A stretch of 64,000 nt of DNA from Escherichia coli (GCF_030013595.1 NZ_CP122768.1), one strand, 5' to 3'; shown: positions 25,889 to 59,883, counted from the stretch's first letter. Notes: generated from the letters alone by a model not told the origin. Numbers and translations are program-made.

Positions 25889-25930
25889 AACGACTTCATA
25901 GATAACCTGTTAAATAATCAGGCTGTTGCA

Positions 25931-31046: not shown

Positions 31047-31093
31047 CAACGGGCGTGTTATACGCCCGTTTCAATATTTAACACATGTAGAGA

Positions 31094-31257
31094 TTACATG
31101 TTCTTGATGATCGCATCACCAAACTCGCTACATTTCAGCAATTTAGCGCCTTCCATCAGACGTTCGAAGTCATAGGTTACGGTCTTGGCGTTGATTGCGC
31201 CTTCCATACCTTTAACAATCAGGTCTGCGGCTTCAGTCCAGCCCATATGGCGTAACA
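31094..31257 (-). pseudogene. icdC: icdC: displaced chromosomal 3' fragment of icd (last ~53 codons), left by prophage integration
   Basis: 31094-31254 aligns with the 3' end of intact icd (58633-58796) with scattered substitutions; similarity stops near 31255; preceded by the same terminator hairpin (31048-31070). Confidence 0.85.
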
Positions 31258-31767
31258 GTATATAAAAACATTAAGTTCAATTCATTGATATTTAATGATA
31301 AAAATTATTTTATTGTCTTTTTATTAGCCAAAATCAACTTTATTCAACCGTTTGATTTCATTGACGTTCGTTTTTATTTTGGGGAAAGGTTTTCTCTACC
31401 ATTTATATCCAAATTACAAGTCTACATTTTATTAACATCTCAATACATGTGAGGCCTTGCAGACCTTTGTGAGACCTTATGTGTCTCTGTTTTGTCCCAC
31501 CTTGTATTACGACTTGCATAGCCAATGAAGATAAATGTGACGACAAACGGCGCGGCAGTCTTCTTTTCCTTCATACTTTCCCCACCCAGCATGCATACCT
31601 TTATGCCATAACTGAAGTTTATGTCTGTTATGAGCGATGAGCGGAAGTTCACTACTTCATGACTAACATTGAAGTGTCCTAAGCAACGGGGAGCAGCTCA
31701 AGGAGTGTGTTAGTGCAATTACACTAACACAGCTACTAAAAATAAAAATACCAAAACTACAGTTATT

Positions 31768-32883
31768 CTATGCGCCTGGATTGGGTTCGATCATACTCAG
31801 CGTTTTTGCTATTTTCTTAATCTCATCATCATTATCCAAAAAAGAGGCGTCTTTTATTACCACAGTACGCTCTTCTTGTAATAGCTCACCTATTTTTTCT
31901 TCTATAAAATCTAAGGTTGGCATTATAATCTGGATGTCTCGAGAAAAAGTAGTTTTTGCATCTTCTATACTGTTGAATCCATTATGTATATGAGTGAATA
32001 TTCTCTTTTTAAACTGTATGTCTTCTGGATTTCCCACTAACTGACTGAAATCTCCTTTCATAACTCTTTCGCTTGTTTCAAAGAGCTGTATTGCTATCGA
32101 GTCGATTAATTCCTTTTTGGACAGAGATGCTTGTTCATAAAATTTGGTGACTAACTCTGTTGGTAACTTTCTTGAGACGACTTTAATGGACAGTCTCTGA
32201 AATAGGTAAGGTGCCACCACGCCCACACTGAAAGGGTGAATCCTCCCTGGATTTAATAATTTTATTGTGACGTTTTCAAAAACTAGCTCATTGATTTTAC
32301 TATTTATGAATTCCATTAAATACTTATCTAATGATAATGTTACCGACGCAACCGCTTCTATCACTTGTTTAAATGGCTCGCCTTTCAAGGATTTAAAAAA
32401 CTCTTTGTTATAACCAAAGAAATCCACAAAACCTAAATTTATTCGATTTTCTTCTTTAGTATTTGAAATGCGAATTTGAAGTTGTTTTAAGTCTTCATCG
32501 GTCAAGTATTTTAAACCATAGTCATCAAGCGCGTTACGTATAACTTTATCTGCAGATTCTAAGTCGATTACAGTTTTTACATTAAAAAACAATGATAACA
32601 ATGAATCATACTTATGAACTCGCAAGGTTAAATCTGTTGCATTTGATGCGGTTACATTTATACGTCTCAAAAGATCAATAACTTTACTAATTGGTAGGCT
32701 GTTTTCAAAAATTTTGAATGACTCGTATTCAGATACAACATCTTTTATATACTTACTGATAGTATGAGACTTTATTTCCACCTCAACTTCGGTTGAGTAA
32801 GAATGAATTAGTGAGTTTGTAGTTTCAGCGATGTCATTTGATACATACAACTTATATTCGAAACAATCAGGAGCGGGAAGCAA
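31768..32883 (-). CDS. Continuation reading frame of the Mrr-like gene (about 370 codons, unknown function); no independent start, probably joined by a frameshift
   Basis: Open for 371 codons in AT-rich DNA but first in-frame ATG is about 190 codons in; no SD before the TTG at 32883; overlaps upstream ORF by 76 nt in a different frame. Confidence 0.5.
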   Translation of the reverse strand: MLPAPDCFEYKLYVSNDIAETTNSLIHSYSTEVEVEIKSHTISKYIKDVVSEYESFKIFENSLPISKVIDLLRRINVTASNATDLTLRVHKYDSLLSLFFNVKTVIDLESADKVIRNALDDYGLKYLTDEDLKQLQIRISNTKEENRINLGFVDFFGYNKEFFKSLKGEPFKQVIEAVASVTLSLDKYLMEFINSKINELVFENVTIKLLNPGRIHPFSVGVVAPYLFQRLSIKVVSRKLPTELVTKFYEQASLSKKELIDSIAIQLFETSERVMKGDFSQLVGNPEDIQFKKRIFTHIHNGFNSIEDAKTTFSRDIQIIMPTLDFIEEKIGELLQEERTVVIKDASFLDNDDEIKKIAKTLSMIEPNPGA

Positions 32884-33233
32884 CTATTATCAATAATGGA
32901 AAACAATAAAAATTTAATTATTTCTCTTAATGCTTGCGGTCTAGTTATTCTACCTTGCATTTTTTTACATTGTATTAAACCACTTACAACACCGTTATGG
33001 TATAGCACGCAGTCGCGTCCTCTTTCAGAAACTCCTTGCATTAAAGATATTGAGGATATATTTTTATGCTTTCCATCTTCAATTTCGTTCTTTACTAACA
33101 AATAACATAGCAACTCAAATTCTCGATCACCTAATTCTGAAAAGGGAAGCAATCCGATACCAGAATCTATAGTCCATGGTCTATATCCTGATTGAGCCTC
33201 GATATTAATTTGTTCGTCACTGATTTTTTTCAC
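32808..33233 (-). CDS. Mrr-like PD-(D/E)xK restriction-endonuclease catalytic domain protein (N-terminal part of a probably longer gene)
   Basis: GTG start at 33233 with strong SD (AAGGAGatttaaGTG); translation ...LGDREFELLCYLLVKNEIEDGKHKNISSISLMQGVSERGRDCVLYHNGVVSGLIQCKKMQGRITRPQALREII fits the Mrr_cat pattern (FExL..LL, GxD, QxK, later R). Confidence 0.6.
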   Translation of the reverse strand: MKKISDEQINIEAQSGYRPWTIDSGIGLLPFSELGDREFELLCYLLVKNEIEDGKHKNISSISLMQGVSERGRDCVLYHNGVVSGLIQCKKMQGRITRPQALREIIKFLLFSIIDNSCFPLLIVSNISCMYQMTSLKLQTH

Positions 33234-33548
33234 TTAAATCTCCTTCTAATCTTATTGACCTACTCCCTACATTGTAACAGGGGATGATGATAAGGTGTAT
33301 CTTTCGAGCTATAAGCACGATAAATAAGTGATTAAAAATGACTCTTTAAACTATTTTAATTTAAAAAATTAATTGTTAGTTCTAATTATGGTATGAGGGC
33401 ATTTTCGGCATAGTTCTAACCATATACTTTGGTAAAAATGACTGTTACGGAACAGACCATAGTAATGCCTGCTATTGGCACGGAGCGGGCCGCCTGAGCG
33501 CCGTGGGGTCTGCAAACGGTAAGCATACCGATAACTATACGCTTGGCC

Positions 33549-33968
33549 TTAGTAACTTTTGCTCCCCTCAATAAATCCGCCATCTTTTATCGGACTGCAA
33601 TGTCCTTCTTCATCAATCAGTTGCTCGTCTTTCAGGTAGGTATATCGATAGATAATTGAGCCATTATCCATCTCACCATTGGTTCGTTTCATTAGGAGAG
33701 TAAAATGTAACGGGCTGTCCCTATATCGAGCTATTCCATGAATATTGGCAAGTACCTCATATTGACGCTCAGGTGATAACCCTTTAAATACATCGAGATA
33801 TCCATGGAATGTTCCATAGAGTGAAGAAGTGTAGATCAGTCGCTGCTCTGGACCAGTAACTTTAAGAGTAATTTGTTCACCCGTATTACAGGTTAGCTTG
33901 GCGGGAAATGTCTCAGCCTGAGCAGAAGAAATAGTCAAGCTTAAAATTATCAGGTAGCAATATTTCAT
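33549..33968 (-). CDS. Secreted (signal-peptide) protein of unknown function, prophage cargo
   Basis: ATG at 33968; MKYCYLIILSLTISSAQA|ETFPAKLTCNTGEQITLKV... (AxA signal peptidase site); AT-rich. Confidence 0.6.
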   Translation of the reverse strand: MKYCYLIILSLTISSAQAETFPAKLTCNTGEQITLKVTGPEQRLIYTSSLYGTFHGYLDVFKGLSPERQYEVLANIHGIARYRDSPLHFTLLMKRTNGEMDNGSIIYRYTYLKDEQLIDEEGHCSPIKDGGFIEGSKSY

Positions 33969-34252
33969 GTGATTAGAATGTCCAAAACTAACATGTATAC
34001 TCGGGATTCTATAACTAGTTGGATGTAGACCCAAGATGTATTGGACTATTCTTCGGTTGTAGTTGGTCAAATCATATATTTTATGTCAGCAATGTCTACT
34101 TTTGGCACATAGCAGACCAGAGACACTGGCGTAAAGCCATGGAGGATCGGTGGGAGGAGGTAAAAATCCTCTCATGCAAAAAATACGCAAAATCGATAAC
34201 AGTTGGAAATCATTCAATACTCGCACTATCGGAAGTTCACCAGCCAGTCGTA

Positions 34253-34290
34253 GCACGTTCTTGCATATGACGTGGCTACGGGTTTCGAGA
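34253..34290. repeat. Direct repeat R1: diverged copy of the pinE 3' end plus terminator hairpin
   Basis: gtAGCACGtTCTTGCATAtGACGTGgCTACGGgTTTC aligns with 35270-35305 (gcAGCACGaTCTTGCATAcGACGTGCTACGGTTTC). Confidence 0.7.
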
Positions 34291-34376
34291 CCGACCCGAT
34301 CATCAAACGAAACATAAAATTAGCTCACATTATGAGGAAAGGTATCTTTTTGCGCTATGTAAATTCAAAGGGTTAG

Positions 34377-35246
<870 letters not shown>

Positions 35247-35269
35247 GTCTTTAAGTGATAAGCATAAAC

Positions 35270-35305
35270 CGCAGCACGATCTTGCATACGACGTGCTACG
35301 GTTTC
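35270..35305. repeat. Direct repeat R2: pinE 3' end/terminator hairpin
   Basis: Hairpin GCAGCACG-13nt-CGTGCTAC immediately after pinE stop codon; partner of R1. Confidence 0.7.
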
Positions 35306-35858
35306 ATTTATCTCCGACCGGAAACTTCTTATACAAAGTCGATACACCCACATCGTAGATAATCGCCACCTTCTGGCGAGGAGTTCCTGCTGCAATTAAT
35401 CTTCCGGCTTGTGCCCATTGTTCTGGTGTAAGTTTGGGACGACGTCCACCAATTCGTCCCTGTGCGCGAGCAGCTTCCAGTCCAGCTTTTGTTCGTTCAA
35501 CAATCAGTTCACGCTCCATTTCAGCCAGGGCACCCATCACATGAAAGAAAAAGCGTCCCATTGGTGTGCTGGTATCAATTGAATCCGTCAGACTATGAAA
35601 GTTGATGCCTCGTTCGCGCAACTCCTCCACCAACACGACAAGATGCCGCATACTACGCCCCAGCCGATCCAGCTTCCAGACAACCAGAGTGTCACCTGCC
35701 GATAATGTCCTGAGCAGTTTTTTCAGTCCCGGCCTTTCGGACTTTGTGCCGCTTATCTTGTCTTCAAAAATCAGCTCGCATCCTGCACAGTTCAGCGCAT
35801 TACGTTGTAGATCTGTGTTCTGGTCATTTGTTGATACGCGTACATAGCCAATAAGCAT
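35304..35858 (-). CDS. pinE: Serine DNA invertase Pin (Gin/Hin/Cin family)
   Basis: MLIGYVRVSTNDQNTDLQRNALNCAGCELIFEDKISGTKSERPGLKKLLRTLSAGDTLVVWKLDRLGRSMRHLV..., 184 aa, catalytic Ser in VRVSTNDQ; ORF trimmed to ATG 35858. Confidence 0.88.
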   Translation of the reverse strand: MLIGYVRVSTNDQNTDLQRNALNCAGCELIFEDKISGTKSERPGLKKLLRTLSAGDTLVVWKLDRLGRSMRHLVVLVEELRERGINFHSLTDSIDTSTPMGRFFFHVMGALAEMERELIVERTKAGLEAARAQGRIGGRRPKLTPEQWAQAGRLIAAGTPRQKVAIIYDVGVSTLYKKFPVGDK

Positions 35859-35884
35859 GGTAGATCCCCCTGACAAAAGCAGGA

Positions 35885-36283
35885 ATGATGCCATTTGCTC
35901 GTTATTTCTGCATTTTCATAAACGTTGGTTTGGGAGAAGCGGCAAAGAGGAATGTGGGGACAGGAGAAAATCAGGTACCGGATATGAACAGCTTTGGTAA
36001 CTCATTGACCGCCAATGGATACCAGAAATTACCTGGGGGGATGATTATTCAATGGGGGAGTTTTTCTGTCTCACCAACCGGAGGAAGTGTTGGAACAGTT
36101 GATATAACATTACCTGTAGCTTTCCCTGCTGCTTGTCGTTCGGTAAACGCTCTTATTTCAACTAATGATCCTTCTGCCCGTTCTGTGGGCTTTGATATTG
36201 GAAGTACCAACAGAACTAAAATCAGATTTACTTACACTTCTGCTACAACAAATTCAATTTACTGGATGGCTGTGGGGTATTAA
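35885..36283 (+). CDS. Alternative tail-fibre C-terminal (variable) segment, currently in unfused orientation
   Basis: Reading frame open from 35864 without conserved fibre N-terminus; followed 3 nt later by a tail-fibre-assembly gene. Confidence 0.5.
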   Translation: MMPFARYFCIFINVGLGEAAKRNVGTGENQVPDMNSFGNSLTANGYQKLPGGMIIQWGSFSVSPTGGSVGTVDITLPVAFPAACRSVNALISTNDPSARSVGFDIGSTNRTKIRFTYTSATTNSIYWMAVGY

Positions 36284-36285
36284 CT

Positions 36286-36717
36286 ATGGAAAAGACATAT
36301 TATTTTAATCCCTCTGATTCGGGATTTTATATTTCACCAGATAGCCAAACCATTCCTGAGAACGCTACGAAAATAAACTTTACTATTTATTCTGAGTTCG
36401 CAGGAGTTGCATGGCCTGATGGTAAAATACTTGGTTCAGATAAAAATGGTTTTCCAGCATGGCAGGATGCGCCACCACTTACCAGCGAAGAATTAATCTC
36501 AATCGCTGAATCAAATAAACAGCGATTAGTTAATCAGGCCAACGAATACATGAACAGTAAACAATGGCCTGGTAAAGCGGCGATTGGTCGTCTGAAAGGT
36601 GAGGAACTGGCGCAATATAATTTGTGGCTGGATTATCTGGACGCACTGGAACTGGTCGATACTTCCAGTGCGCCAGATATTGAATGGCCTACTCCTCCGG
36701 CAGTTCAGGCCAGATGA
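36286..36717 (+). CDS. Tail fibre assembly protein (alternative orientation)
   Basis: 143-aa ORF ending ...[28 protein letters not shown]; C-terminus similar to minus-strand Tfa (...[25 protein letters not shown]). Confidence 0.65.
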   Translation: MEKTYYFNPSDSGFYISPDSQTIPENATKINFTIYSEFAGVAWPDGKILGSDKNGFPAWQDAPPLTSEELISIAESNKQRLVNQANEYMNSKQWPGKAAIGRLKGEELAQYNLWLDYLDALELVDTSSAPDIEWPTPPAVQAR

Positions 36718-37294
36718 CATCCGGCGCGGTACTGGTATCTGTTGCCGTCACCGCGTCAATGTAATCCAGCACAGTGTTAAGTCGGGTGGTCTCTGCCTGC
36801 ATCAGCTTCCGCCCGGCCTGCAATTTCAGTTGAATCAGACTAATGGAAGCCATTGCAGTATCAATCAGTGACTGACGTTGTGCTTCTGCCGCGTCTACTG
36901 CGGCGCTATGCTGTGTCTCAGTATCCGTTACCCATTTCTCACCATCCCATTTATCGTATGGCGTTAACGGGGCGATAGTGGTTGTTTTTTCGGGGTAATC
37001 ACCCGGAGTTGTGATTTCTTTGGCGTCTCCCGTTTCGGTGTTATAGACGATTTCACCGCGATGGTCTGGTACATATTCCCATGAGTTAAAATCTGCAGAG
37101 CGGCAGATTGCATAACCAGCTTTGTAGGTGCCTGGAGCATCTAAACAGGAATATGCCGGAATGCCGACACCAACAGCAAGATATTCAGTTGAAGCTGAAA
37201 TATACTCCCGACTCATGACGTCAAAGTTATAAACAGTAATTTCTCCTGCCATAGTGGCAATTAATTCACTGTTTAATTCTGCGTTATTCATCAT
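36689..37294 (-). CDS. Tail fibre assembly protein
   Basis: 201-aa ORF immediately downstream of tail fibre gene (4-nt overlap); conserved Tfa C-terminal motif. Confidence 0.7.
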
Positions 37295-38076
37295 GCGGCC
37301 CTCACAATATAATTAAAGGCGATGTTACGTGGACGATTTTCATTTGCTGTTGGAACAACATTTGCCGCCGAGAAGTGAACATCTTGTCGGATTTTTCGGT
37401 CATTAGCGTATGTCATAGACACATTGATGTTATTCCGGACTGAGGTACCTCCGTAAAAAGCTCCACTCACACTTTGAACATCGACAATTGCATTAATTTC
37501 GCTGTTTACGCGCAACTGACCAAAACCGCCAGTAATGTTTCGAATAGCATCTCCTTGCGATGAAAGCAGAGTTCGCCCACTATCCACACCACGTTCATCA
37601 TCCCAGCCACGAATAAACTCACCGCGTAAATCAGGCAATTTATTTGTCGGGTAAGACTTTGCCAGTTCCGGGTATTCTTCAGCAGAAAAAGCCGCACCAT
37701 TGCATTTCAGCCAGCCTGTTGGTGGAGTGGCTGAAGGCCACGGAACAGGCACACCAACGGGTAATGCCGAACCTTCTCCCAAACCAAGGTTTTCGAGAGC
37801 TGTTTTCACCGTGCCATCCGATTTGATATCGCCAAACGGATTCTTGCGGCTTAACAGCAGCGCACGAAGCGCGGTAAGCAGCTGGTCATGCCGCCCCTTC
37901 TCCAGGCTGGCACCGGATGCCTCCACAACGCTGCAAAGCTCCTCCTGCAACATGTCAAAGTAGTCATCATCCAGATCGGTGGCAGGCGTGCCGGTCTGGG
38001 GGTTACCACGGGTAAAACCGTTCTTACCCGCGCCGAACTTATCCTTCTGCGCGGTTTTCGTGTCTATACGATGCAT
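37291..38076 (-). CDS. Tail fibre protein (constant N-terminus fused to current variable C-terminus)
   Basis: 261-aa [50 protein letters not shown]... ending ...[11 protein letters not shown]. Confidence 0.7.
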
Positions 38077-38079
38077 GGA

Positions 38080-38664
38080 TTACTCCGGATATTTAAAAAT
38101 CACATAGGTATGCGACGGGCAGAGTTTGTTAAGAACACACTCGACAACGGTGTCCCCCCAGAAGCGCAGCGCGGAATCACAGGGATCGCCACATGTCATC
38201 CAGGTGGTGTTGGTGGCGGCTGGCATGTTGACCTGCCAGTAATACCGCCATTCAGGCGCATTCACCGCGTCAGTACAGGCCGATGAGCAGGTGAACGTGC
38301 TTTTGTCGTATCGCGTGATGTTGGCATCCAGTCTGCCCAGGGCAGCAAGCTGTGCAAGATAAAAATTCTCGTTGATGCCGCCCGCCAGGTTAACCTTCGC
38401 ATCCAGCCGTTGCTGACGCTGGCGAAGGGTCTGTGTCCCTGTAGGAATACATTCATCCGGCAGGCCGCACAGACGCTCCCAGCGATTTATCAGTTCGGTG
38501 GTGGTGCGCGGATCCAGCTCCCGCATCAGGGCATCCGCACGCTGATGAACGCGGGTTAATGACGGTGCCGCACCGGCAATCGCCGGATCGCTGGCTGACC
38601 ACGCCGGACCGGGCGGCAACAGTGCTGACAACAGACGGATGTAATCATCGTTTGTCACGTCCAT
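38080..38664 (-). CDS. Tail/baseplate protein (Mu gp48-like)
   Basis: 194-aa ORF between baseplate J gene and tail fibre gene; gene order matches Mu tail module. Confidence 0.6.
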
Positions 38665-39713
38665 GAAATCGCCCCCAGAACCGCCAGTTCATTTTTTGCA
38701 ATGGTGATATTGTCCGCCGGTGCAAGCAACTGATGGCTGTATTCCCCGTTCGCACCGGAAATCGCTTCACTGATACGTGACACCTTCAGTTCTCCCTGCG
38801 GATAACCATCACGCAGCAGGAACGAACGCAACTCCGCGGTGATGGCAGCCCGTATTTCCGGTGTGTCCGGCGTAACACGGATATGAAAATCCACCGTATG
38901 TGCCACCGGCCTGAACACATACAAATCAGAGCCTGCCACCGGGGCCAGTGGCCCGATATGTTGTCTTGCCGCCGTTTCCGTTGATTCTTCCGGAATGGGA
39001 TTAATCAGGTCACTGCTGGCAATCATCACACCGACAGTCCCCGTTCCCATCCAGTGTCGGTATGTCCATGCGCGGGTAATGCCAGGCACTTCTTTAGCCC
39101 AGACGACATAGTCCCCGTCAGCCCCGCCCTGCGGCGTCCAGTAATACCGCTCAATGACGCGGGCGCGCCACGTTTCCAGCTCTTCAGTATCAAATCCGCC
39201 TGTCAGGGTGTCAGCCACACCGGAAGACGGCAGACCATTCACCGGCGTGACCAGGATTAATGCCGTACCGTCGTCAGCGTTACCGACCGCACCTGCACTT
39301 GAGCAGGCGATCGGCACGCGCAGGACACCACCGGAGCTGATTGCATCGTCAGTTGTCGTGTACTGCACCAGGTCATCGCGCTGAATAACACTCCCGGCAG
39401 TCACCTTCAGGCCATCGCTGACACCTTCCCAGCGCATATACCCGCTGGCAACCGTGGCTCCCTTGCGCGGACACCGTTTCATCGCAGCATGTCGCGCCAA
39501 CCAGGACTCATCGCACAGGTCAGGCAGCATATTCATTGCCAGATAATCGATGTAACCGTAGACCGTATGCAGCGCCGCCGCATACACCTTTGCCCGCACG
39601 TCTTCATCCATGCGCCGGAGCGTGTCGCTGACGTCCAGCCTGGCGAATAAATCGTTACGGAGCATACTGATATTTTCTGCCAGCGTCGGGCGCTGAAATT
39701 CACTGTCCGCCAT
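38655..39713 (-). CDS. Baseplate J-like protein (Mu gp47-like)
   Basis: 352-aa ORF; size and position in Mu-like order. Confidence 0.65.
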
Positions 39714-40128
39714 GCGTTATCGCACTCCACAGATCATCAAAAGAAATCATTACTGGTCCATCACGACGCCAGAGGGTGATACTGTTACCCAGCTCATTAA
39801 TCCCGGTGCGGCGGATATCCAGATCAATACGGGACACCACGCCGTCATCAGTCATCCATTGCAGGCATTCGCGGATATATCCCCTTACCGTCTGCACCAG
39901 CTGATTGGTCAGTTTGCTGCGCTGAAGCAGCCACAGTCGGGAGCCGTAACGGTCATTCTGTACCGCAGGCCAGGTATCCCCCCACCATCCCATCGGGACG
40001 TCGGCATTGTCATCAGGCTCCGCCCGCCGCCAGGTGAACAGGGAAATCACCACGGCGCGGGTCAGCGGATCCAGCGGTGCGCTGGCGCAGGTGCGTTTAC
40101 CGTTCACCGTCAGCCACAGTTCCATCAT
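39700..40128 (-). CDS. Baseplate protein (Mu gp46 / gp25-like)
   Basis: 142-aa ORF; position between V-like and J-like genes. Confidence 0.55.
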   Translation of the reverse strand: MMELWLTVNGKRTCASAPLDPLTRAVVISLFTWRRAEPDDNADVPMGWWGDTWPAVQNDRYGSRLWLLQRSKLTNQLVQTVRGYIRECLQWMTDDGVVSRIDLDIRRTGINELGNSITLWRRDGPVMISFDDLWSAITHGGQ

Positions 40129-40673
40129 GCCTCCATCGCTTTATCAGGTTTGTCGGTGTTACTGCCCTGACCGTTCTCTCTGTGACGATGCCCGTTATAG
40201 GCAAGCCGCATCGCTGACATGGTGGTGCCGCCGGAGTCGCACAGGTCTTTCACTTGTCCGGTCACTTCCAGATCCATTTCAAAACGTGCTTCAGTTGCAT
40301 TGCGAAACGTGATCGTTTTCCCTGCACCGTCCACCACGATCCCCTCCCGGGTCAGCGTCACAGACTGCCCCTGATCGTCATAGACAGCCACCTCACCCGT
40401 CTGCAGCCCTTTCAGGCGGTAGCGCCGGTCCGACACCGTAACAACCACCGCATGAGAACGGTCGCCATCCGGAAACAACACCACCGCTTCCGCACCGCTG
40501 TTTGCCCTTGCGGTAAAACCGTAGGGTTCAAGATGTTCAACCCCGGCTTTGGGTTCACCGGCAATCAGGGACACATCCACGGTCTGACATTTCGTGGCGG
40601 CACTGATGCTTTTCACCACGGCCCGCCCAATCAGGCCGAGAAGTTGTCGCTGCATGGCTTCAATCGTCCTCAT
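40125..40673 (-). CDS. Baseplate assembly protein V-like (Mu gp45-like spike)
   Basis: 182-aa ORF; position. Confidence 0.6.
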   Translation of the reverse strand: MRTIEAMQRQLLGLIGRAVVKSISAATKCQTVDVSLIAGEPKAGVEHLEPYGFTARANSGAEAVVLFPDGDRSHAVVVTVSDRRYRLKGLQTGEVAVYDDQGQSVTLTREGIVVDGAGKTITFRNATEARFEMDLEVTGQVKDLCDSGGTTMSAMRLAYNGHRHRENGQGSNTDKPDKAMEA

Positions 40674-41752
40674 CAGAACGGGTCCTCCTGTACTCTGGCT
40701 TTTTTCTTTTTCCGCGCGCCGGGGGCTTCGGGTCCAGGCAGATAAGCATCAGGCGGGCCGACACGGATTTCCGTCAGGGTGCCGTTCTGGTCCTGAGTAA
40801 ACGTGACTTCCGAGACAAGCAGTTCGGTATTGTCGAAACCACAGACCGGATCGAAGACAATCACCCGCTGGTTGGGCTGCCACAGCGTACCGTTACCCTG
40901 TCGCCAGCCCTGCACCACATAGGTGGTTTCATCCGTCCGCGCCGCCCGTTGCCGGGCTTCAAAGTCAGCACGCGCAATACAGCCTGCCCCCGTAGCCTGC
41001 CCTGTCTGCCTGATATACATCGGACGGTAACGGGCAATAAATGCGTCTTCTGTGCGGGCCCGCAGCGCGGTGGTGGTGGCCTCACCGAAATCATCGTCGT
41101 TTCCGGCACGCTGCCCCGCCACCTGGTAAACAGAAAACCGCTCCCGGATACTCTTCTCCGTATCGCAGGAAAGGATGTTTTCCCCGAGTACCAGCGCGGT
41201 ATGTGCCCGCGTTGAGCCAATACCGCCAATCACCAGCCTGCCGTGCGAGTCGTCGTAAGCCAGCGCCTGCTGCTGACCGAGTATTTTGTTGATCACCTCG
41301 ATCACCGTTTCACCGTGATCAGGCTGGACATCAGGAATAACACCCGACGGCGCACCGCTGTTCACCACCTCAATGCCGAAAGGCGCAGCAAGCGCCTGCG
41401 CAATCTGTACCAGCGATCGTCCGTTAAACTGTGTCGGTTCGGCTGCACAGTCAATCAGGTCAGCGGTCAGACTACGTCCGGCAATACCGGTGCTGACCGA
41501 ACGGGCATCGTAACGAACGGGCGTCGCCTCCACCCAGCCAGTGATCACCAGCTCATCACCAATCAGCACTTCCACTTTTGAACCGTTTTTAATGCGCGGC
41601 TGAAGCGTGGTGATACCCTCATCTCCCGGCCACTGGCGGGTGATCTCCACACTGAAATCCCGCGCCAGTCGTTCAACACCGGCACCGATGCGCACCGATG
41701 TCCAGCCATTCCACTCCCGGCCATTTACCCGTAGCGTGACGTTATCGTTCAT
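40673..41752 (-). CDS. Baseplate hub / tail protein (Mu gp44-like)
   Basis: 359-aa ORF; position following DNA circulation gene. Confidence 0.6.
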   Translation of the reverse strand: MNDNVTLRVNGREWNGWTSVRIGAGVERLARDFSVEITRQWPGDEGITTLQPRIKNGSKVEVLIGDELVITGWVEATPVRYDARSVSTGIAGRSLTADLIDCAAEPTQFNGRSLVQIAQALAAPFGIEVVNSGAPSGVIPDVQPDHGETVIEVINKILGQQQALAYDDSHGRLVIGGIGSTRAHTALVLGENILSCDTEKSIRERFSVYQVAGQRAGNDDDFGEATTTALRARTEDAFIARYRPMYIRQTGQATGAGCIARADFEARQRAARTDETTYVVQGWRQGNGTLWQPNQRVIVFDPVCGFDNTELLVSEVTFTQDQNGTLTEIRVGPPDAYLPGPEAPGARKKKKARVQEDPF

Positions 41753-43077
41753 TGCACTGGCACCTTCAGAGGGATCACCGGCACAAAGCCGGGATGCGTA
41801 ATGGCATTACGCCGGATAATGTCCCCGTCACGCGCCGCGTTATCAAACCAGGTCGCCGCCAGCACCAGCGCGGGTAAAACCTCATCCGGCGTGCGCTGAA
41901 TGATCCGTGCAGACTGTTCAAGGCGCGTGTTGATATCCGCATTCAGATCTGCTTTCACCCGGCGCAGCGCCAGAAACAGCGCATCACTGGTTGTACGGGA
42001 CAACTCCTTATCAATTGCCGTATTCAGTGTGTCGCGAATGTCAGTCAGTTCTTCCCACGTTGGCAGGTCAACCGTGCTTTTCACCGCCGGTGCATTGTTC
42101 AGTGCCGGATGCGTGACGGAAGGCCAGCCAGTGCTCTGCGCGGGTGTTGTTGCCTGCCCCACTGCGGCATTCTGCATCACCGCGGAAGTTGTTGGCGCAG
42201 GCAATCGGGTGACGGCATACGCCGCTTCGCTGATTGCGGTCGTACGAAGGATGCTGGCAACCACGTTACGCTGCTGTGTCGCCGTGGCGGTGGTTTTACT
42301 GTCCGTTTTCCAGACGCCGCGCGGTTGCAGATCGCTGCCAAGGCTGACACCGGAAAGCGTTTTGATCATGGTGACCAGGTCGCTGGCGTTACCATAAAGG
42401 CGTTTCCCGGTACGCCACATTTTCTGCACCTGCTCAACGAAATTTTTGCCTGACGATGGTGGCGGCAGAAGTACCGAGATATCCCCCTGCAACAGCCTGG
42501 CAGCATCCGATACGGCAGAATCCACCACTTTCATCGCATCAGAAACATACCCAAGCATTGTGCTGGCATTACCGACGACGTCGTTCTGCACAAAATCCGC
42601 CACGCCATCGATACTGAAACCGCTGAAGCTGTCACTGATGCAGTTATCCAGTGCAGAACAGGATGACATCAGCGTCTGCGCCGTCGCCGCACCTGATGTG
42701 GGGTAAGAGAGTTCTCCTGCTTCGACAAACTTCAGGTCAAAGCGGACAATACGCCCTTCACTTTTCGATGTGCTGACCCGAACTTCCCCGTCAACACAGA
42801 CTTTCAGCTCACCGTATGTCGGATGGACAAGCGTGCCGGGACCGGGTTTATTCAGCGCGTCAATCAGGCGATCGCGCTGGTCAAAGCAGTCATCTCCCAC
42901 CACATAAGCCGTGATGGACGGGCGAAAAGTGATTTTCCCCAGGTCTTCGGTATAGGGTTTGTCGCGGTTCGGGTATTCATGTGTTTCCACACGGCGACCG
43001 GTTCCCGCACTTTCTTCTTCAACCTTAAACGGCACACCTCGAAATGACGCATCCTGAAGCCTGTCTTTCCACGTCAT
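41749..43077 (-). CDS. DNA circulation protein (Mu gp43-like)
   Basis: ATG at 43077 with SD GGAG 5 nt upstream; MTWKDRLQDASFRGVPFKVEEESAGTGRRVETHEYPNRDKPYTEDLG... (conserved N-terminal motif of this family). Confidence 0.7.
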   Translation of the reverse strand: MTWKDRLQDASFRGVPFKVEEESAGTGRRVETHEYPNRDKPYTEDLGKITFRPSITAYVVGDDCFDQRDRLIDALNKPGPGTLVHPTYGELKVCVDGEVRVSTSKSEGRIVRFDLKFVEAGELSYPTSGAATAQTLMSSCSALDNCISDSFSGFSIDGVADFVQNDVVGNASTMLGYVSDAMKVVDSAVSDAARLLQGDISVLLPPPSSGKNFVEQVQKMWRTGKRLYGNASDLVTMIKTLSGVSLGSDLQPRGVWKTDSKTTATATQQRNVVASILRTTAISEAAYAVTRLPAPTTSAVMQNAAVGQATTPAQSTGWPSVTHPALNNAPAVKSTVDLPTWEELTDIRDTLNTAIDKELSRTTSDALFLALRRVKADLNADINTRLEQSARIIQRTPDEVLPALVLAATWFDNAARDGDIIRRNAITHPGFVPVIPLKVPVQ

Positions 43078-43087
43078 ATACACTCCG

Positions 43088-43118
43088 AAAATAAAAAAGC
43101 CACCTATTAGAAGGTGGC
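43088..43118 (-). terminator. Intrinsic terminator of the moron gene, located inside the tail operon
   Basis: Minus strand: GCCACCTattagAAGGTGGC followed by ttttttatttt. Confidence 0.7.
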
Positions 43119-43138
43119 CTTGTAATGAATTTTATTAA

Positions 43139-53129: not shown

Positions 53130-53311
53130 TATTTACCTCCGCCGACAGACGACTGTGTACGGTCGAGATATCGCGCCACCAGCCACGACCAGAACAGGCA
53201 CAACGCCCCGGCAACAACAAACCCCGCCGGGGGATAAATCAGCCAGGCACCATACGCCAGCAAAAGCGCCCCCAGCACGCCCACCAGAGGCGCGAGAATC
53301 AGCATGATCAT
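53129..53311 (-). CDS. Small two-helix membrane protein between terminase and portal genes
   Basis: 60-aa [52 protein letters not shown]..., SD GAGGT, stop overlaps portal start (TAGTG). Confidence 0.6.
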
Positions 53312-53322
53312 AATTACCTCAG

Positions 53323-55056
53323 TTAAAGCGAGCGGATCCCATAGGACTCAATGTGGTCAGACAACGTGTCTTCTTTCTCGTACAGCATGGCTCTGCCAAC
53401 CGCCATAATCAGCGCAACTGCACCATCGATTTTGTTTTCCGCCTGCTCTTTGACGGGCTTCACCACATCATCGTTACCCGGAATGGTTTTGCCGACCACG
53501 TTGCCGATACACCAGGTCATGATGGGATTGCCATCATGATGAAAGCGCCCCGATTCAATTGCCGCTTCCAGCTCTTTCATCGGGTCGGACATGTTGGTGT
53601 AGTTCTGAATGATAGTGATGGGGTTCAGGTCTTCATCAGCCAGGTCATGTGACAGCCCGGTCGCCCCGAAGGGGTCGATGGGTGACTCACTGACCGGGCT
53701 GATTTTGTTCGCCGCTTTGGCCTCCTCGAGGATGTAGCGATAATCCACCTCCGCACCATCGGTAACGGTCAGAACGCCCATTACCACCCATTTCTGAAAG
53801 CGTTCGGCTGTCCGTCGATCTTCATTTTTCTCGACACTGTACACCGTGTCATACGGTACCCAGAAACGCGGGGCCACACTGTAGTAATGCGTTTTACCGT
53901 CAATCTCGCGGGTATAAAGTCGCGCCATGCTGTTCATATCCAGCTTACGCGCCAGGTCAAAGGCCAGAATGCACGGCTGCCCCTCGAACTGCTCAAGGGT
54001 CAGTGATTTATCCTCGCAGCTCTGCCAGCTCACCAGGTTGAAATACGCCGAACGCGCCGACACCCAGATATTGAGGTGCTTTGTTTTAAAGACGTTTGCC
54101 AGACGGGCGTTATTTTTCGCACGCTGCTGCTGACTTAACAAAAATTCGCGATAAACCGACACGCCAATATTCGGGTTAGCTTTTTCCAGCACCTGCGGGT
54201 CGGTCCAGTCATCGCCTTCGTCAACGGTATAGATGATCCCGAACAGTTCATCGTTGGGTACCGACCCGTTGAGCATCTCGATAACTTCCCGCCGCTTGTC
54301 GTAGCACGGCCCCTCAATGTTGTACCCGGCAGTAGTAATGGCCCACATCAGTGGCTGACGTCGCGCCCCCATCCCGGTAAGCATCGTGGTGTAAAGCGCA
54401 TCGGTGGCGTGCTCGTGATATTCATCCACCACCGCACAGTGGGGTGATGATCCATCACCGGGGTTACCGATCAGCGGTTCAAACCGCGCGCCATCCTCCG
54501 GACGGTTCATGTTTGAGGCGTTAACCTCAATCCCGAACGCTTCCGTCAGCATGGGCGTGCGTTTACACATCAGTCGCGCCGGGCGAAAGACTTCCCACGC
54601 CTGTTTCTCTGTCGTGGCACCGGAATACACTTCCGCGCCAAACTCGTTATCACAGGCAAAACAATACAGGGCAACACCGGCAGAGATTGCTGATTTGCCG
54701 TTCTTACGGGGGATTTCGGTATACACCTCCCGGAAGCGGCGCAACCGGGTGCCTTTATTGACCCAGCCAAACGCACAGCAGATCACAAAGAGCTGCCACG
54801 GCTCCAGCGTGATGGGCATCCTCTTGAATGCCCACTCACCCTTGGTGTGCGGCAACAGCTGAATAAATTTGGCGGCCCGTTCAGCCAGGTCCTTGTCGAA
54901 GCGGTAACGAAACGACTTACTTTTTTCCGCCATCAGGTCATCAAGATGGCGCTGGCAGGCCTGAATCACAAACTGGCAGGCCACAATCTTTCCGCGAACG
55001 ACATCCCGGGCATACTGATTGGCAGCATTTACGTTGGGGTAAGATTTCCGGCTCAT
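53323..55056 (-). CDS. Terminase large subunit
   Basis: 577-aa ORF with Walker A-like IPRKNGKS and Walker B-like VVDEYHEH, C-terminal nuclease region. Confidence 0.85.
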
Positions 55057-55556
55057 GATTCGATGATTTTCAGAAACGGGTTAGTAGCTTTCTTCTGCCC
55101 CGCCAGGCCAATCAGACGCTGGCGGCTGCTGGGGTCGAGTCCGAGCATTGCCCCCGTGCTGCTCATCTCGGACTCCTGTTCTTTTTTGGCGGTCAGCTCA
55201 GGATTTTTGACCATACCGCCCATTGCACCGGTGATGGTGTTGCCCTGTCTGGCAATATTTTTCACGGCACGTCGCCAGAACTCATAGGCCACACACCACC
55301 GCTCAAGCACCGCGAGGTCAGTCACGCACAGCAGGCCCTGACCGCAAAGTTCTTTAGTTGTCAGTTGCCACATGATCGTGGCGAGAGGGAGATCTTCTTC
55401 AGCGAACCACTCCGGTGGCTCAACACCTTTGATGGGCGTAAAAACAGGTTCATCTTTATTCAGGGCTCGCTTGCCGGGGTTTCCGGCCAGCGCCTTGCGC
55501 GCCGTTGGCTTGGGGCGACGCCCGGAACGCCCCGCCGTTCCAGCCATATGCGGCAC
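55053..55556 (-). CDS. Terminase small subunit (P27 family)
   Basis: 167-aa [40 protein letters not shown]...; 4-nt overlap with large subunit gene. Confidence 0.75.
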
Positions 55557-55672
55557 TCCTGGTTAAATTTCATTTTTCGCGGGTATAAAAAAACGATGGG
55601 GCGGGCAGTCCGGAAGACGTCAGGTCACAGAGATTTGACCCGCCCCTCCCCTCAGACAGTTGAGAATTATTA

Positions 55673-56023
55673 TCACTTTAGCCGTTCACGGGCCGTCTTC
55701 GCCTTATGGCACGGCCAGCACAGGCTCTGCAGATTACTGTCTGCATCGGTGCCGCCATGCGCTTTAGGGATGATGTGGTCAACGGTTTTCGCCTCACGCA
55801 CCACACCAGCACGCAGACATAACTGACACAGGCCTTTGTCACGCTTCAATATGCGCGCGCGGATACTGTCCCACTTCGAACCGTAGCCGCGCTGATGACG
55901 GGATTGCCCCGGCTTGTATTGTTTCCAGCCTTCGTTTTTGTGGCTTTCGCAGTAGCCTGACGGGTCTGTAGTGGTATTACGGCAGCCGCGAACGCGGCAG
56001 GCTTTTGGGATTCGTGATGGCAT
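55673..56023 (-). CDS. HNH endonuclease (terminase-associated)
   Basis: ATG 56023 with SD GGAG; MPSRIPKACRVRGCRNTTT...CQLCLRAGVVREAKTVDHIIPKAHGGTDADSNLQSLCWPCHKAKT. Confidence 0.8.
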   Translation of the reverse strand: MPSRIPKACRVRGCRNTTTDPSGYCESHKNEGWKQYKPGQSRHQRGYGSKWDSIRARILKRDKGLCQLCLRAGVVREAKTVDHIIPKAHGGTDADSNLQSLCWPCHKAKTARERLK

Positions 56024-56246
56024 ATGTACTCCAATGAAGAAGCCACCGACATAGCCTCCTCCATTCATCGTGAAACTATTTTCATCTACGCAGTCATGAA
56101 TTCTTTGTAGAGTTGTGATCAATACAACTCACTAATGGAGAGGCTTGTCCAACACGTTGGACAAGTTTCCTGTTTGATTTACTGGACACTATAGAAGGAC
56201 AGAATGCCTTCCTCACTCGAATAACATTAATTAAGGAGGTTCAACA

Positions 56247-57575
56247 CTGATGAATCCCCTAATGATTTTGGTAAAAATCATTAAGTTAAGGTGGATACAC
56301 ATCTTGTCATATGATCAAATGGTTTCGCGAAAAATCAATAATCAGACAACAAGATGTGCGAACTCGATATTTTACACGACTCTCTTTACCAATTCTGCCC
56401 CGAATTACACTTAAAACGACTCAACAGCTTAACGTTGGCTTGCCACGCATTACTTGACTGTAAAACTCTCACTCTTACCGAACTTGGCCGTAACCTGCCA
56501 ACCAAAGCGAGAACAAAACATAACATCAAACGAATCGACCGATTGTTAGGTAATCGTCACCTCCACAAAGAGCGACTCGCTGTATACCGTTGGCATGCTA
56601 GCTTTATCTGTTCGGGCAATACGATGCCCATTGTACTTGTTGACTGGTCTGATATTCGTGAGCAAAAACGACTTATGGTATTGCGAGCTTCAGTCGCACT
56701 ACACGGTCGTTCTGTTACTCTTTATGAGAAAGCGTTCCCGCTTTCAGAGCAATGTTCAAAGAAAGCTCATGACCAATTTCTAGCCGACCTTGCGAGCATT
56801 CTACCGAGTAACACCACACCGCTCATTGTCAGTGATGCTGGCTTTAAAGTGCCATGGTATAAATCCGTTGAGAAGCTGGGTTGGTACTGGTTAAGTCGAG
56901 TAAGAGGAAAAGTACAATATGCAGACCTAGGAGCGGAAAACTGGAAACCTATCAGCAACTTACATGATATGTCATCTAGTCACTCAAAGACTTTAGGCTA
57001 TAAGAGGCTGACTAAAAGCAATCCAATCTCATGCCAAATTCTATTGTATAAATCTCGCTCTAAAGGCCGAAAAAATCAGCGCTCGACACGGACTCATTGT
57101 CACCACCCGTCACCTAAAATCTACTCAGCGTCGGCAAAGGAGCCATGGGTTCTAGCAACTAACTTACCTGTTGAAATTCGAACACCCAAACAACTTGTTA
57201 ATATCTATTCGAAGCGAATGCAGATTGAAGAAACCTTCCGAGACTTGAAAAGTCCTGCCTACGGACTAGGCCTACGCCATAGCCGAACGAGCAGCTCAGA
57301 GCGTTTTGATATCATGCTGCTAATCGCCCTGATGCTTCAACTAACATGTTGGCTTGCGGGCGTTCATGCTCAGAAACAAGGTTGGGACAAGCACTTCCAG
57401 GCTAACACAGTCAGAAATCGAAACGTACTCTCAACAGTTCGCTTAGGCATGGAAGTTTTGCGGCATTCTGGCTACACAATAACAAGGGAAGACTTACTCG
57501 TGGCTGCAACCCTACTAGCTCAAAATTTATTCACACATGGTTACGCTTTGGGGAAATTATGAGGGGATCTCTCAG
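56247..57575 (+). mobile_element. IS10 (1329 bp, complete), no flanking 9-bp target duplication
   Basis: Outside end CTGATGAATCCCCTAATGATTTTGGTAAAAATCATTAAG at 56247, inside end ...TTATGAGGGGATCTCTCAG at 57575; flanks ggttcaaca / tattaagcg differ. Confidence 0.9.
56354..57562 (+). CDS. IS10 transposase
   Basis: 402-aa ORF MCELDILHDSLYQFCPELHLKRLNSLTLACHALLDCKTLTLTELGRNLPTKARTKHNIKRIDRLLGNRHLHKE... recognised as IS10 Tnp. Confidence 0.92.
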   Translation: MCELDILHDSLYQFCPELHLKRLNSLTLACHALLDCKTLTLTELGRNLPTKARTKHNIKRIDRLLGNRHLHKERLAVYRWHASFICSGNTMPIVLVDWSDIREQKRLMVLRASVALHGRSVTLYEKAFPLSEQCSKKAHDQFLADLASILPSNTTPLIVSDAGFKVPWYKSVEKLGWYWLSRVRGKVQYADLGAENWKPISNLHDMSSSHSKTLGYKRLTKSNPISCQILLYKSRSKGRKNQRSTRTHCHHPSPKIYSASAKEPWVLATNLPVEIRTPKQLVNIYSKRMQIEETFRDLKSPAYGLGLRHSRTSSSERFDIMLLIALMLQLTCWLAGVHAQKQGWDKHFQANTVRNRNVLSTVRLGMEVLRHSGYTITREDLLVAATLLAQNLFTHGYALGKL

Positions 57576-57604
57576 TATTAAGCGTCAATGAGCGTCTGGA
57601 AAGA

Positions 57605-58519
57605 ATGAAAGGCAGGCGCTCAGACATTACGGTGACAGAATGGCTTGATAAATATATTTCTATCCAGGAGGACAGGCTGCAACATAATGAACTAAGACCC
57701 AACTCCTATCGGCAAAAAGGCAAACCCATTCGTCTTTTCCGTGAGCATTGTGGAATGCAACACCTCAAGGATATTACCGCACTTGATATTGCCGAAATAA
57801 TTGATGCTGTAAAGGCTGAAGGTCATAACAGGATGGCGCAAGTCGTGAGAATGGTGTTGATCGACGTCTTCAAAGAAGCACAACACGCAGGACATGTTCC
57901 GCCAGGATTTAACCCAGCGCAGGCAACAAAACAACCGCGAAATCGAGTAAACCGCCAAAGATTGTCACTGCCCGAATGGCAGGCAATATTTGAAAGCGTA
58001 AGCAGACGGCAGCCCTATTTAAAATGCGGCATGCTACTTGCTCTTGTTACTGGACAACGTTTAGGCGATATCTGCAATTTGAAATTCTCTGATATATGGG
58101 ACGACATGTTGCACATTACTCAGGAAAAAACCGGTTCAAAACTTGCTATTCCGCTTAACCTGAAATGCGATGCTCTGAATATTACCCTTCGTGAAGTTAT
58201 ATCTCAGTGCAGGGATGCTGTTGTTAGTAAATATCTGGTCCATTACCGTCACACTACCTCTCAAGCAAACAGAGGAGACCAGGTTTCTGCAAATACTCTG
58301 ACAACGGCTTTTAAAAAGGCCCGGGAAAAATGTGGCATAAAATGGGAGCAAGGAACTGCGCCCACATTTCATGAGCAGCGATCTCTGTCAGAACGGTTAT
58401 ATCGGGAACAGGGTCTGGATACGCAAAAGTTGTTAGGCCATAAATCCAGAAAAATGACCGACCGATACAATGATGATCGTGGTAAAGACTGGATTATCGT
58501 AGATATCAAAACAGCATAG
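57605..58519 (+). CDS. Phage tyrosine integrase (lambda Int-like), apparently lacking the N-terminal arm-binding domain
   Basis: 304-aa ORF; ...LLALVTGQRLGDICNLKFSDI...GTAPTFHEQRSLSERLYREQ...LLGHKSRKMTDRYNDD (R...HxxR...Y catalytic signature); aligns to lambda Int from about residue 60 onward. Confidence 0.8.
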   Translation: MKGRRSDITVTEWLDKYISIQEDRLQHNELRPNSYRQKGKPIRLFREHCGMQHLKDITALDIAEIIDAVKAEGHNRMAQVVRMVLIDVFKEAQHAGHVPPGFNPAQATKQPRNRVNRQRLSLPEWQAIFESVSRRQPYLKCGMLLALVTGQRLGDICNLKFSDIWDDMLHITQEKTGSKLAIPLNLKCDALNITLREVISQCRDAVVSKYLVHYRHTTSQANRGDQVSANTLTTAFKKAREKCGIKWEQGTAPTFHEQRSLSERLYREQGLDTQKLLGHKSRKMTDRYNDDRGKDWIIVDIKTA

Positions 58520-58581
58520 AAAATAGCCAGTTTTGGGGAAGGGTTTTGGGGAAAGTTTTGGGGAAGATTTTACATCATCAT

Positions 58582-58609
58582 AAAACAACGGGCGTGTTAT
58601 ACGCCCGTT
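58582..58609 (-). terminator. icd intrinsic terminator (phage-supplied copy)
   Basis: Minus strand: AACGGGCGTATAACACGCCCGTT followed by gtttt, 24 nt after icd stop. Confidence 0.65.
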
Positions 58610-58632
58610 TCAATATTTAACACATGTAGAGA

Positions 58633-59883
58633 TTACATGTTCTTGATGATTGCATCACCAAACTCGCTGCATTTCAGCAGTTTAGCACCTTCCATCAGAC
58701 GTTCGAAGTCATAGGTTACGGTCTTGGCGTTGATTGCGCCTTCCATACCTTTAACAATCAAGTCTGCGGCTTCAGTCCAGCCCATATGGCGCAGCATCAT
58801 CTCAGCGGAGAGAATAATAGAGCCTGGGTTTACTTTGTCCTGACCGGCATATTTCGGCGCAGTACCGTGGGTGGCTTCAAACAGGGCGCATTCGTCACCG
58901 ATGTTTGCGCCTGGGGCGATACCGATACCGCCGACCTGTGCAGCCAGAGCGTCAGAAATGTAGTCACCGTTCAGGTTCATACAGGCGATAACATCATATT
59001 CAGCCGGACGCAGCAGGATCTGTTGCAGGAATGCGTCAGCAATCACGTCTTTAATGACGATCTCTTTGCCGGTATTCGGGTTTTTAACTTTCAGCCACGG
59101 GCCGCCGTCGATCAGTTCACCGCCAAACTCTTCACGCGCCAGCTGGTAGCCCCAGTCTTTAAACGCGCCTTCGGTGAACTTCATGATGTTGCCTTTGTGC
59201 ACCAGGGTCACAGAGTCACGATCGTTAGCAATTGCGTATTCGATCGCTGCACGAACCAGACGTTTGGTGCCTTCTTCCGAACACGGCTTAATACCGATAC
59301 CGCAATGTTCCGGGAAGCGAATTTTCTTCACGCCCATCTCTTCACGCAGGAATTTAATCACTTTCTCGGCGTCGGCAGAGTCAGCTTTCCATTCGATACC
59401 CGCATAAATGTCTTCCGAGTTTTCACGGAAGATAACCATATCGGTCAGTTCAGGGTGTTTAACCGGGCTTGGAGTGCCCTGATAGTAACGTACCGGACGC
59501 AGGCAGATGTAGAGATCCAGTTCCTGACGCAGGGCAACGTTCAGAGAGCGAATACCGCCACCAACCGGAGTGGTCAGCGGACCTTTAATGGCAACGCGAT
59601 ATTCACGAATCAGATCAAGGGTTTCAGCAGGCAGCCAGACATCCTGACCATAAACCTGTGTGGATTTTTCACCGGTGTAAATTTCCATCCAGGAGATTTT
59701 ACGCTCGCCTTTATAGGCTTTCTCGACTGCAGCGTCGACCACTTTCAGCATGGCTGGGGTTACATCTACACCGATTCCATCACCTTCAATGTAAGGGATA
59801 ATCGGATTTTCAGGAACGTTGAGTTTGCCGTTTTGCAGGGTGATCTTCTTGCCTTGTGCCGGAACAACTACTTTACTTTCCAT
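58633..59883 (-). CDS. icd: Isocitrate dehydrogenase (NADP), 3' end supplied by prophage
   Basis: 416-aa [76 protein letters not shown]... Confidence 0.95.

Follow-up and report, generated by a model that had tools for sequence, protein, structure and literature searches.

Heads of the HK97 type joined to tails of the Mu type were reportedly recognized in Shigella phage SfV by Allison in 2002, and the whole mosaic, including its lambdoid regulation, is said to have been described for SfV in that year. The HK97-head/Mu-tail architecture is already known in the SfV/e14 family. The group has been published under the name of "SfV-like lambdoid myovirus" (PMC3603311; PMC3636060), the packaging and morphogenesis genes of SfI being arranged as in SfV, phiP27, ST64B and prophage e14 and its left half being 97% identical to the "e14" prophage of E. 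coli S88 (PMC3636060). Head proteins of SfIV have likewise been attributed to the HK97 family (PMC3851460), and reports of complete "e14" relatives in E. coli genomes go back at least to 2013. Here, we addressed a stretch of 64,000 nucleotides from Escherichia coli (GCF_030013595.1, NZ_CP122768.1; hereafter the window, with positions counted from its first letter), in which the interval 31253–58791, a single insertion in the 3′ end of icd, very probably represents one defective prophage of the SfV/e14 family ("lambdoid myoviruses"). An earlier reading made from the sequence alone had placed a mosaic prophage at 31258–58796, and these limits turned out to be accurate within a few bases when judged by the attachment (att) repeat and by alignment with the empty site.

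The closest described relatives are Shigella phages SfII, SfI, SfIV and SfV and Escherichia phage vB_EcoM-689R6, with which the structural block is collinear at approximately 97% DNA identity. Within the 18 kb of this block every structural protein aligns with its SfII counterpart over the full length with 94–100% identity, a range that holds for SfI, SfIV and SfV too; the tail block (45735–48579) is identical to SfII by 98–100% and the baseplate block (38080–43083) by 97–99%. From 55556 down to 35304 the genes form an unbroken operon-like array on the minus strand supported by Pfam, and the succession proposed in the sequence-only reading—terminase subunits, portal, protease, capsid and connectors followed by sheath, tube, chaperone, tape measure, DNA circulation, baseplate, fibre and pin genes—was recovered there in full. 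Collinearity with SfII, together with att arms of the same integrase type at both ends, argues for a single element, and the possibility of two adjacent unrelated remnants was rejected on these grounds. Among 5426 complete E. coli genomes, over which all frequencies given below were counted, 114 cover at least 80% of the structural and cargo region of the window. Unlike the phages of the SfV group, which integrate at tRNA-thrW, carry gtrABC genes for O-antigen modification and possess a complete lambdoid early region, the prophage of the window has neither this site nor these genes, and its early region is deleted. It has, in turn, three components missing from the SfV group, namely a 176-aa (amino acid) moron, a Pin-invertible fibre segment and CMoRE cargo.

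The head and packaging block, delimited by Pfam and by comparison with SfII and HK97, spans 48576–55556 on the minus strand and comprises genes for neck, head closure, connector, a small open reading frame (ORF), capsid, protease, portal, YmfR, TerL and TerS, that is, the HK97-family module expected for the SfV-like/e14 family. It begins with P27-family terS (55053–55556, Pfam Terminase_4) and terL (53323–55056, Pfam TerL ATPase and nuclease domains) and continues through the portal gene (51888–53129, Phage_portal), the S78 protease gene (51260–51946, Peptidase_S78) and the gene of HK97-family capsid (50040–51245, Phage_capsid) to the connector and head-closure genes (49057–49787, Phage_connect_1 and Phage_HCP), all on the minus strand. 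Direct comparison by tblastn with gp2–gp5 of HK97 gave 26% identity for terL (E 3e-27), 32% for the portal (E 6e-54), 36% for the protease (E 4e-24) and 26% for the capsid (E 6e-8), so that the HK97-type head is supported both by these matches and by the domains Peptidase_S78, Phage_capsid and Phage_portal. Upstream of terS, an HNH endonuclease is encoded at 55673–56023 on the minus strand (Pfam HNH, E 3.8e-16), an enzyme that HK97-like cos phages typically carry beside terS as an accessory of packaging. Taken together with this terminase-associated HNH protein, the homologous set shared with HK97 shows 26–37% identity, whereas the tail of HK97 is long, non-contractile and lambda-like, and beyond the head only side fibre and fibre-assembly genes (68–87%) are common to both phages.

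The tail and baseplate genes follow, also on the minus strand, in the gene order of Mu: tail terminator (48019–48579, Pfam Phage_tail_terminator), DUF2635 protein similar to Mu gp38 (47840–48010, Pfam DUF2635), sheath (46360–47856, three Pfam sheath domains), tube (46004–46360, Tail_tube), tail assembly chaperone (45735–46004, Phage_TAC_7), a tape measure pseudogene (43761–45593, PhageMin_Tail), gpN of DNA circulation (41749–43083, DNA_circ_N), gpP-like hub (40673–41752, GpP-like domains), gp45 (40125–40673, Phage_Mu_Gp45), gp46 (39700–40128, GP46), gp47 (38655–39713, Baseplate_J), gp48/YmfQ (38080–38664, Phage_Mu_Gp48) and fibre with assembly genes (36689–38076, Caudo_TAP). By means of tblastn, the sheath was found to be 36% identical to Mu L (E 6e-84), the hub 35% identical to Mu P (E 2e-53), the N-terminal domain of gpN 43% identical to Mu N and the gp45–48 proteins 30–41% identical to their Mu namesakes, with E-values for the whole set ranging from 6e-84 to 3e-13. 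Together with the Mu-specific Pfam domains DNA_circ_N, GpP-like, Phage_Mu_Gp45, GP46 and Phage_Mu_Gp48, this confirms a contractile tail of the Mu type, and the possible assignment of the tail genes to a non-Mu lineage, checked at the protein level, did not materialize. Sheath, gpN, gpP, gp45–48, DUF2635 and the Gin-type switch are thus shared with Mu in the same order at 30–43% identity (79% for Pin and Gin), whereas Mu differs in its own head type, MuA and MuB, Mu repressor and transpositional integration, as opposed to site-specific integration and HK97-type head and packaging genes of the prophage. No homologue of MuA, MuB or Mu repressor was detected in the window by tblastn, and a transposable Mu-like phage was rejected as a candidate given the lack of A and B genes and the site-specific att.

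At the distal end of the array, the DNA invertase gene pin (35304–35894, minus strand; Pfam Resolvase and HTH_7), with a product 96% identical to PinE and 79% identical to Mu Gin, adjoins a Pin-invertible fibre segment at 35920–37792, to which no strand was assigned. It is enclosed by 20-nt inverted repeats (35920–35939 and 37773–37792, 95% complementary) bordering 1.87 kb, in which two fibre C-termini are encoded as alternatives together with their assembly genes, as in the G segment of Mu and the P segment of e14. The genes of the segment are located at 35885–36283 and 36286–36717 on the plus strand and at 36689–37294 on the minus strand, while the tail fibre gene proper (37291–38076, minus strand; PHROG tail fibre families) combines a constant N-terminus, 97% identical over 105 aa to e14 StfP, with the currently expressed variable C-terminus, 68% identical to HK97 Stf. 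In E. coli 0H26 (12450–14653 of the retrieved locus) and D2 (24286–26453), segments of the same type, with identical tfa alleles WP_000613358.1 and WP_000978831.1, are inverted relative to each other, indicating that inversion occurs in nature.

Prophage e14 of E. coli K-12 appears as a remnant of the same kind of phage. Its aaaE corresponds to the C-terminus of terL in the window (99%), ymfR to the small ORF between terL and the portal gene (100%), beeE to the portal N-terminus (97%), jayE to the C-terminus of gp47 (93%), ymfQ to gp48 (96%), stfP to the fibre N-terminus (97%), tfaE to the fibre assembly gene (86%) and pinE to pin (96%). The two prophages also share the attachment site with a duplicated icd 3′ end, as the sequence-only reading had supposed for an e14-type insertion, and a type IV restriction gene in the slot between pin and att. 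They are reciprocal in what they retain: e14 keeps int, xis, repressor and early genes and has lost nearly all structural genes, whereas the prophage of the window shows the reverse, has a remnant of another integrase allele (62% aa identity to e14 IntE) and lacks lit, ymfD and ymfE. Its earlier description as a more complete relative of e14 is therefore apt for gene content, with most e14 fragments matching intact genes at 93–100%, but not for function, since the integrase is truncated, the tape measure gene is interrupted by an amber codon and lysis and regulatory genes are absent.

The mode of insertion can be followed in detail owing to E. coli HCP5S3_I2, a sister strain with 99.9% identity over window positions 1–24000, where the site is empty and iraM directly adjoins uninterrupted icd. 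In the window the prophage separates bluF, bluR, ycgX and iraM on one side from icd, rluE, nudJ, mnmA and purB on the other, which by comparison with K-12 is the e14 attachment region. It is bounded by a 210-bp direct repeat (31043–31252 and 58582–58791, copies 97.6% identical), containing about 160 bp of the icd 3′ terminus and about 50 bp of downstream sequence. Three-way alignment with the empty site showed the left copy to be the host-type icd end with no differences from HCP5S3_I2 and the right copy to be phage-type with six substitutions, the departure from the empty-site sequence falling at approximately 31256 and the return at approximately 58791–58796. Thus the minus-strand left repeat is icdC, the displaced host end of icd, and the right one, on the same strand, is a replacement end supplied by the phage, leaving icd (58633–59883, minus strand) as a full ORF of 416 aa, 99.5% identical to K-12 Icd. 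The prophage arm next to icdC (31253–31538, no strand assigned) shows 89.5% identity to lambdoid phages; together with icdC it is 94.4% identical to the equivalent arm of a lambda-like prophage that is inserted at icd in E. coli CH4794 and has an integrase of the same type. The att repeat, the empty site and a remnant with Pfam Phage_integrase domain all speak for site-specific integration by a tyrosine integrase. The phage would accordingly have entered the icd 3′ end by means of such recombination and substituted the end of the gene with its own, as e14 and phage 21 do. A scan of the window revealed no tRNA, making integration at tRNA sites irrelevant here.

In strain 268.2, a complete e14-family prophage occupies the same site and has the same structural block; one has been reported for strain S88 as well (PMC3636060). 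Its genes follow in the order icd, cargo, intE, xisE, yfdPQR, ymfK/T/L, replication, nin-like, Q, TIR gene, lysis, iss, HNH and terS onwards, so that approximately 14.7 kb with int, xis, ymfK/T/L, replication, Q and lysis genes and iss are kept; the tape measure is intact, the moron is absent and an acyltransferase serves as the end cargo, in distinction from the prophage of the window. In the latter, only two ORFs are found between the HNH gene and icd, and neither represents novel cargo: one encodes the transposase of IS10, the other is the stub of an integrase gene. The insertion sequence (IS), IS10 (ISVsa5), occupies 1329 bp at 56247–57575 on the plus strand and has all structural attributes of this element: canonical ends forming terminal inverted repeats (CTGATGAATCCCC...GGGGATCTCTCAG), a transposase of 402 aa (56354–57562, plus strand, assigned by annotation transfer) and RNA-OUT (56292–56361, Rfam 98.8 bits). 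The integrase remnant starts immediately behind it (57576–58519, plus strand; Pfam Phage_integrase) and is 98.7% identical in DNA to the gene of the 380-aa integrase of the CH4794 prophage; since the alignment begins at nucleotide 200 of that gene, the first 66 codons, encoding the N-terminal arm-binding part, are missing. On the other side of IS10, 99.9% identity to strain 268.2, including the HNH gene, extends up to the last base before the element, 223 bp upstream of HNH. The space between these two points corresponds to the lambdoid early, immunity and lysis region, which is absent, IS10 standing in its place: tblastn over the whole window revealed no homologues of ymfK, ymfT, repressor, xis, replication, Q, holin, lysozyme or Rz genes, with matches confined to the integrase stub and host umuD. 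The supposed loss of early genes is thereby substantiated, and their absence is a secondary loss, not the mark of a different family. A recombination module of strict e14 type is likewise not present, int being another allele (58–62% aa identity to IntE of e14 and 268.2) and xis being absent.

The nonanucleotides bordering IS10, ggttcaaca and tattaagcg, are unlike each other, so that the 9-bp target duplication is lacking, and such unequal flanks exclude simple insertion and imply a linked deletion or recombination. In the scenario we favour, IS10 would have inserted in int at a TATTAAGCG target; thereafter an adjacent deletion promoted by the element, or its recombination with another copy of IS10, would have taken away around 14–15 kb, as judged by comparison with the complete prophage of strain 268.2. 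The lost part would begin at int codon 66, include xis and the genes of immunity, replication, antitermination and lysis, and end 223 bp upstream of HNH. Both IS10 junctions are missing from all 5426 genomes, which marks the derivative as private to its lineage, and on the strength of these junction counts it is probably recent. Two IS10-related observations may be added. The CH4794 prophage, with the same int type, has its own IS10 just upstream of xis and int (approximately 6003–7331 of the retrieved locus) with a different junction; IS10 may prefer the xis/int region, or this may be coincidence. Furthermore, the left junction in the window (56235–56246) coincides with the start codon of a small ORF following AAGGAGG in the HNH–iss intergenic region of the intact relative (20676–20700 of its locus, …aaggaggttcaacATGTTTCAT…).

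The origin of the integrase stub gives reason to consider whether an SfV-like myovirus and, next to it, a lambda-like siphovirus of CH4794 type once formed a tandem pair of prophages at icd that was fused by an IS10-mediated deletion, the stub coming from the siphovirus. The 98.7% identity of the stub to int of the CH4794 siphovirus prophage, against only 58–62% to IntE of e14 and 268.2, is what such fusion would produce, and the IS10 junction without target duplication leaves the extent of the lost sequence indefinite. Yet the far att arm (31253–31538), which adjoins the cargo and pin block of SfV type, belongs to the CH4794 type as well (94.4%), integration modules are commonly exchanged in the SfV family (thrW in SfII and SfV, other sites in 0H26 and D2), and structural genes of a siphovirus have left no trace. 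We therefore regard the tandem arrangement as improbable: matching att arms at both ends favour one SfV-like phage equipped with an integration module of CH4794 type.

Apart from the IS10-linked lesion, point decay is apparent. Translation of 43761–45593 showed that the tape measure gene contains an amber codon TAG in place of CAG at 44826–44828 (codon 256 of 610), its sole in-frame stop, and alignment showed CAG at this position in both SfII and E. coli 0H26; all remaining structural genes are full length. Together with the loss of a single base pair from a cargo nuclease gene described below, this change represents independent decay that followed the IS10 event. The completeness of the other genes—about 30 head and tail genes with 94–100% identity to viable phages—could also be expected if the block were a domesticated producer of functional particles, tailocin or gene-transfer-agent-like, kept by selection. 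We consider this hardly credible, since the tape measure is interrupted at codon 256, lysis genes and the late-gene activator are absent from the window, the IS10 junctions unique among the genomes surveyed argue for a recent lesion and high identity to active phages is anyway expected from recent acquisition; a functional tailocin was rejected in view of the amber codon and missing lysis genes. A single defective prophage, no longer able to excise, replicate, lyse the cell or build tails, would thus persist as a fixed chromosomal island. Some points weigh against parts of this reconstruction. The order of events (IS10 first, then deletion) is read only from the absent target duplication and from the match of the int junction to a half-site, and the data are equally compatible with two IS10 copies having recombined. 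Both small lesions, the amber codon in the tape measure gene and the 1-bp deletion, are known from one sequence only and could be sequencing errors, and a host with a supE-type suppressor could read through the amber codon. As it stands, the locus shows how a prophage is grounded, one IS10-linked deletion removing excision, immunity, replication and lysis, with point decay after it. It also shows cargo remaining partly intact while the phage dies: among the intact genes, those of plausible importance to the host are CMoRE/PD-T4-3, Pin and a membrane moron predicted to be expressed in the lysogen.

The slot between pin and att (31253–35303), occupied in K-12 by mcrA, accommodates the first group of cargo. 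On the plus strand at 34473–35246 it encodes PD-T4-3, an intact GIY-YIG type IV restriction endonuclease (Pfam LEM-3_GIY-YIG). The single protein with N-terminal GIY-YIG domain is full length and near-identical to characterised members, as follows from the PADLOC model PD-T4-3 (E 2.6e-140, model positions 1–255 of 256) and PDB entry 9U75 (E 5.8e-173, residues 5–262). PD-T4-3 has been renamed CMoRE and shown to degrade DNA containing 5-hydroxymethylcytosine (5hmC) and glucosyl-5hmC (PMC12923530), and its homologue is active against T-even phages in the native host (bioRxiv 10.1101/2024.12.20.629700). By analogy, CMoRE of the window plausibly restricts T-even phages with 5hmC or glucosyl-hmC DNA. 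One type IV enzyme has been swapped for another in the same slot, McrA in K-12 and CMoRE here, where it is accompanied by a second nuclease, and the slot can be viewed as a place where analogous defence genes are exchanged.

This second nuclease is a frameshifted pseudogene (31768–33233, minus strand) corresponding to a protein of 488 aa with an N-terminal PD-(D/E)xK part similar to Mrr, MspJI and Cap4 and a helical C-terminal domain of approximately 360 aa, for which no fold match was obtained. Compared with the intact copy of strain 0H26 (8329–9795 of its locus), one base pair is missing near 32884, and the frame is thereby lost; the intact protein has the accession WP_000723924.1. The gene is intact in 28 of the genomes surveyed, and its family, which has no model in Pfam, PADLOC, PHROGs or NCBIfam, is also found stand-alone in cargo slots of prophages and mobile elements of Enterobacter and Acinetobacter. 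A 139-aa protein with a signal-peptide-like N-terminus (MKYCYLIILSLTISSAQA), deduced by translation of the ORF at 33549–33968 (minus strand), is hypothetical in the annotation of strain D2 and gave no family match in Pfam, PADLOC, PHROGs or NCBIfam; the set is completed by a piece of a capsid gene, recognised as such in the annotations of 0H26 and D2. The whole pin-to-att block occurs in 28 genomes and rides with SfV-like prophages at other sites, as in 0H26 and D2; a literature search with accession numbers of the cargo proteins found no papers. The proposal of novel cargo at the att-proximal end may thus hold for the uncharacterised 488-aa nuclease gene and fails for the already characterised CMoRE.

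The other cargo gene lies inside the tail module, between the tape measure and gpN genes. It encodes the 176-aa moron with a predicted N-terminal membrane anchor (43139–43669, minus strand; protein WP_000679479.1) and has 39% GC against approximately 57% in the flanks. It is preceded by a promoter-like site at 43732–43705 (TTGTAA-16-TAGAAT after TG) and followed by a strong terminator at 43121–43096, and such a combination of putative anchor, promoter-like site and terminator is the classical moron layout. The gene is absent from SfII and gave no megablast match in isolated phages; at an identity of at least 99% it is found in 173 of the 5426 genomes, and homologues with 53–58% identity exist in Leclercia and Lelliottia. 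A profile search among 1.8 billion representatives yielded 79 clusters of similar length, none of these relatives having an annotated domain. The protein matches phrog_5485, a family of unknown function, and no other family in Pfam, PADLOC, NCBIfam or PHROGs. Its AlphaFold2 model is mediocre (pLDDT 64), and Foldseek comparison with PDB returned only noise, namely kinesins with TM about 0.25 and E above 0.01. The same slot between tape measure and DNA_circ_N genes is used in Leclercia (6001–6525 of the locus, 53% identity) and in a diverged metagenomic contig with a Mu-type tail (669–1190). Novel cargo had been proposed for the tail interior; cargo is present there indeed, but the slot itself is already in use among relatives.

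The tape measure gene of HK97 is also accompanied by a moron, gp15. With this parallel in mind, the guess that lends itself best to testing is that the 176-aa protein acts in superinfection exclusion when DNA enters the cell. It is conceivable, though doubtful at present, that both cargo genes are new in function, the 488-aa protein being a single-gene anti-phage system and the 176-aa protein a superinfection-exclusion factor acting on DNA injection like HK97 gp15. The forward value of the locus is in these two uncharacterised families only. In SfV-like tail modules of Leclercia, the tail operon offers a second place for cargo: in Leclercia adecarboxylata (8013–9808 of the locus), two further genes for proteins of 503 and 94 aa without Pfam match stand between DNA_circ_N and the gpP hub.

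Just outside the prophage, a copy of IS200 (30337–31042, TnpA ORF 30440–30949) is located between iraM and icdC, with its small RNA STnc490 at 30908–31031 (Rfam 146 bits); it is missing at this place in the sister strain and in K-12. Further upstream, the host flank contains stretches of low GC content (0.35–0.44) at 8000–13000, 18000–19000 and 21000–27000, and annotated relatives have autotransporter adhesins similar to ypjA/EhaD in this region.

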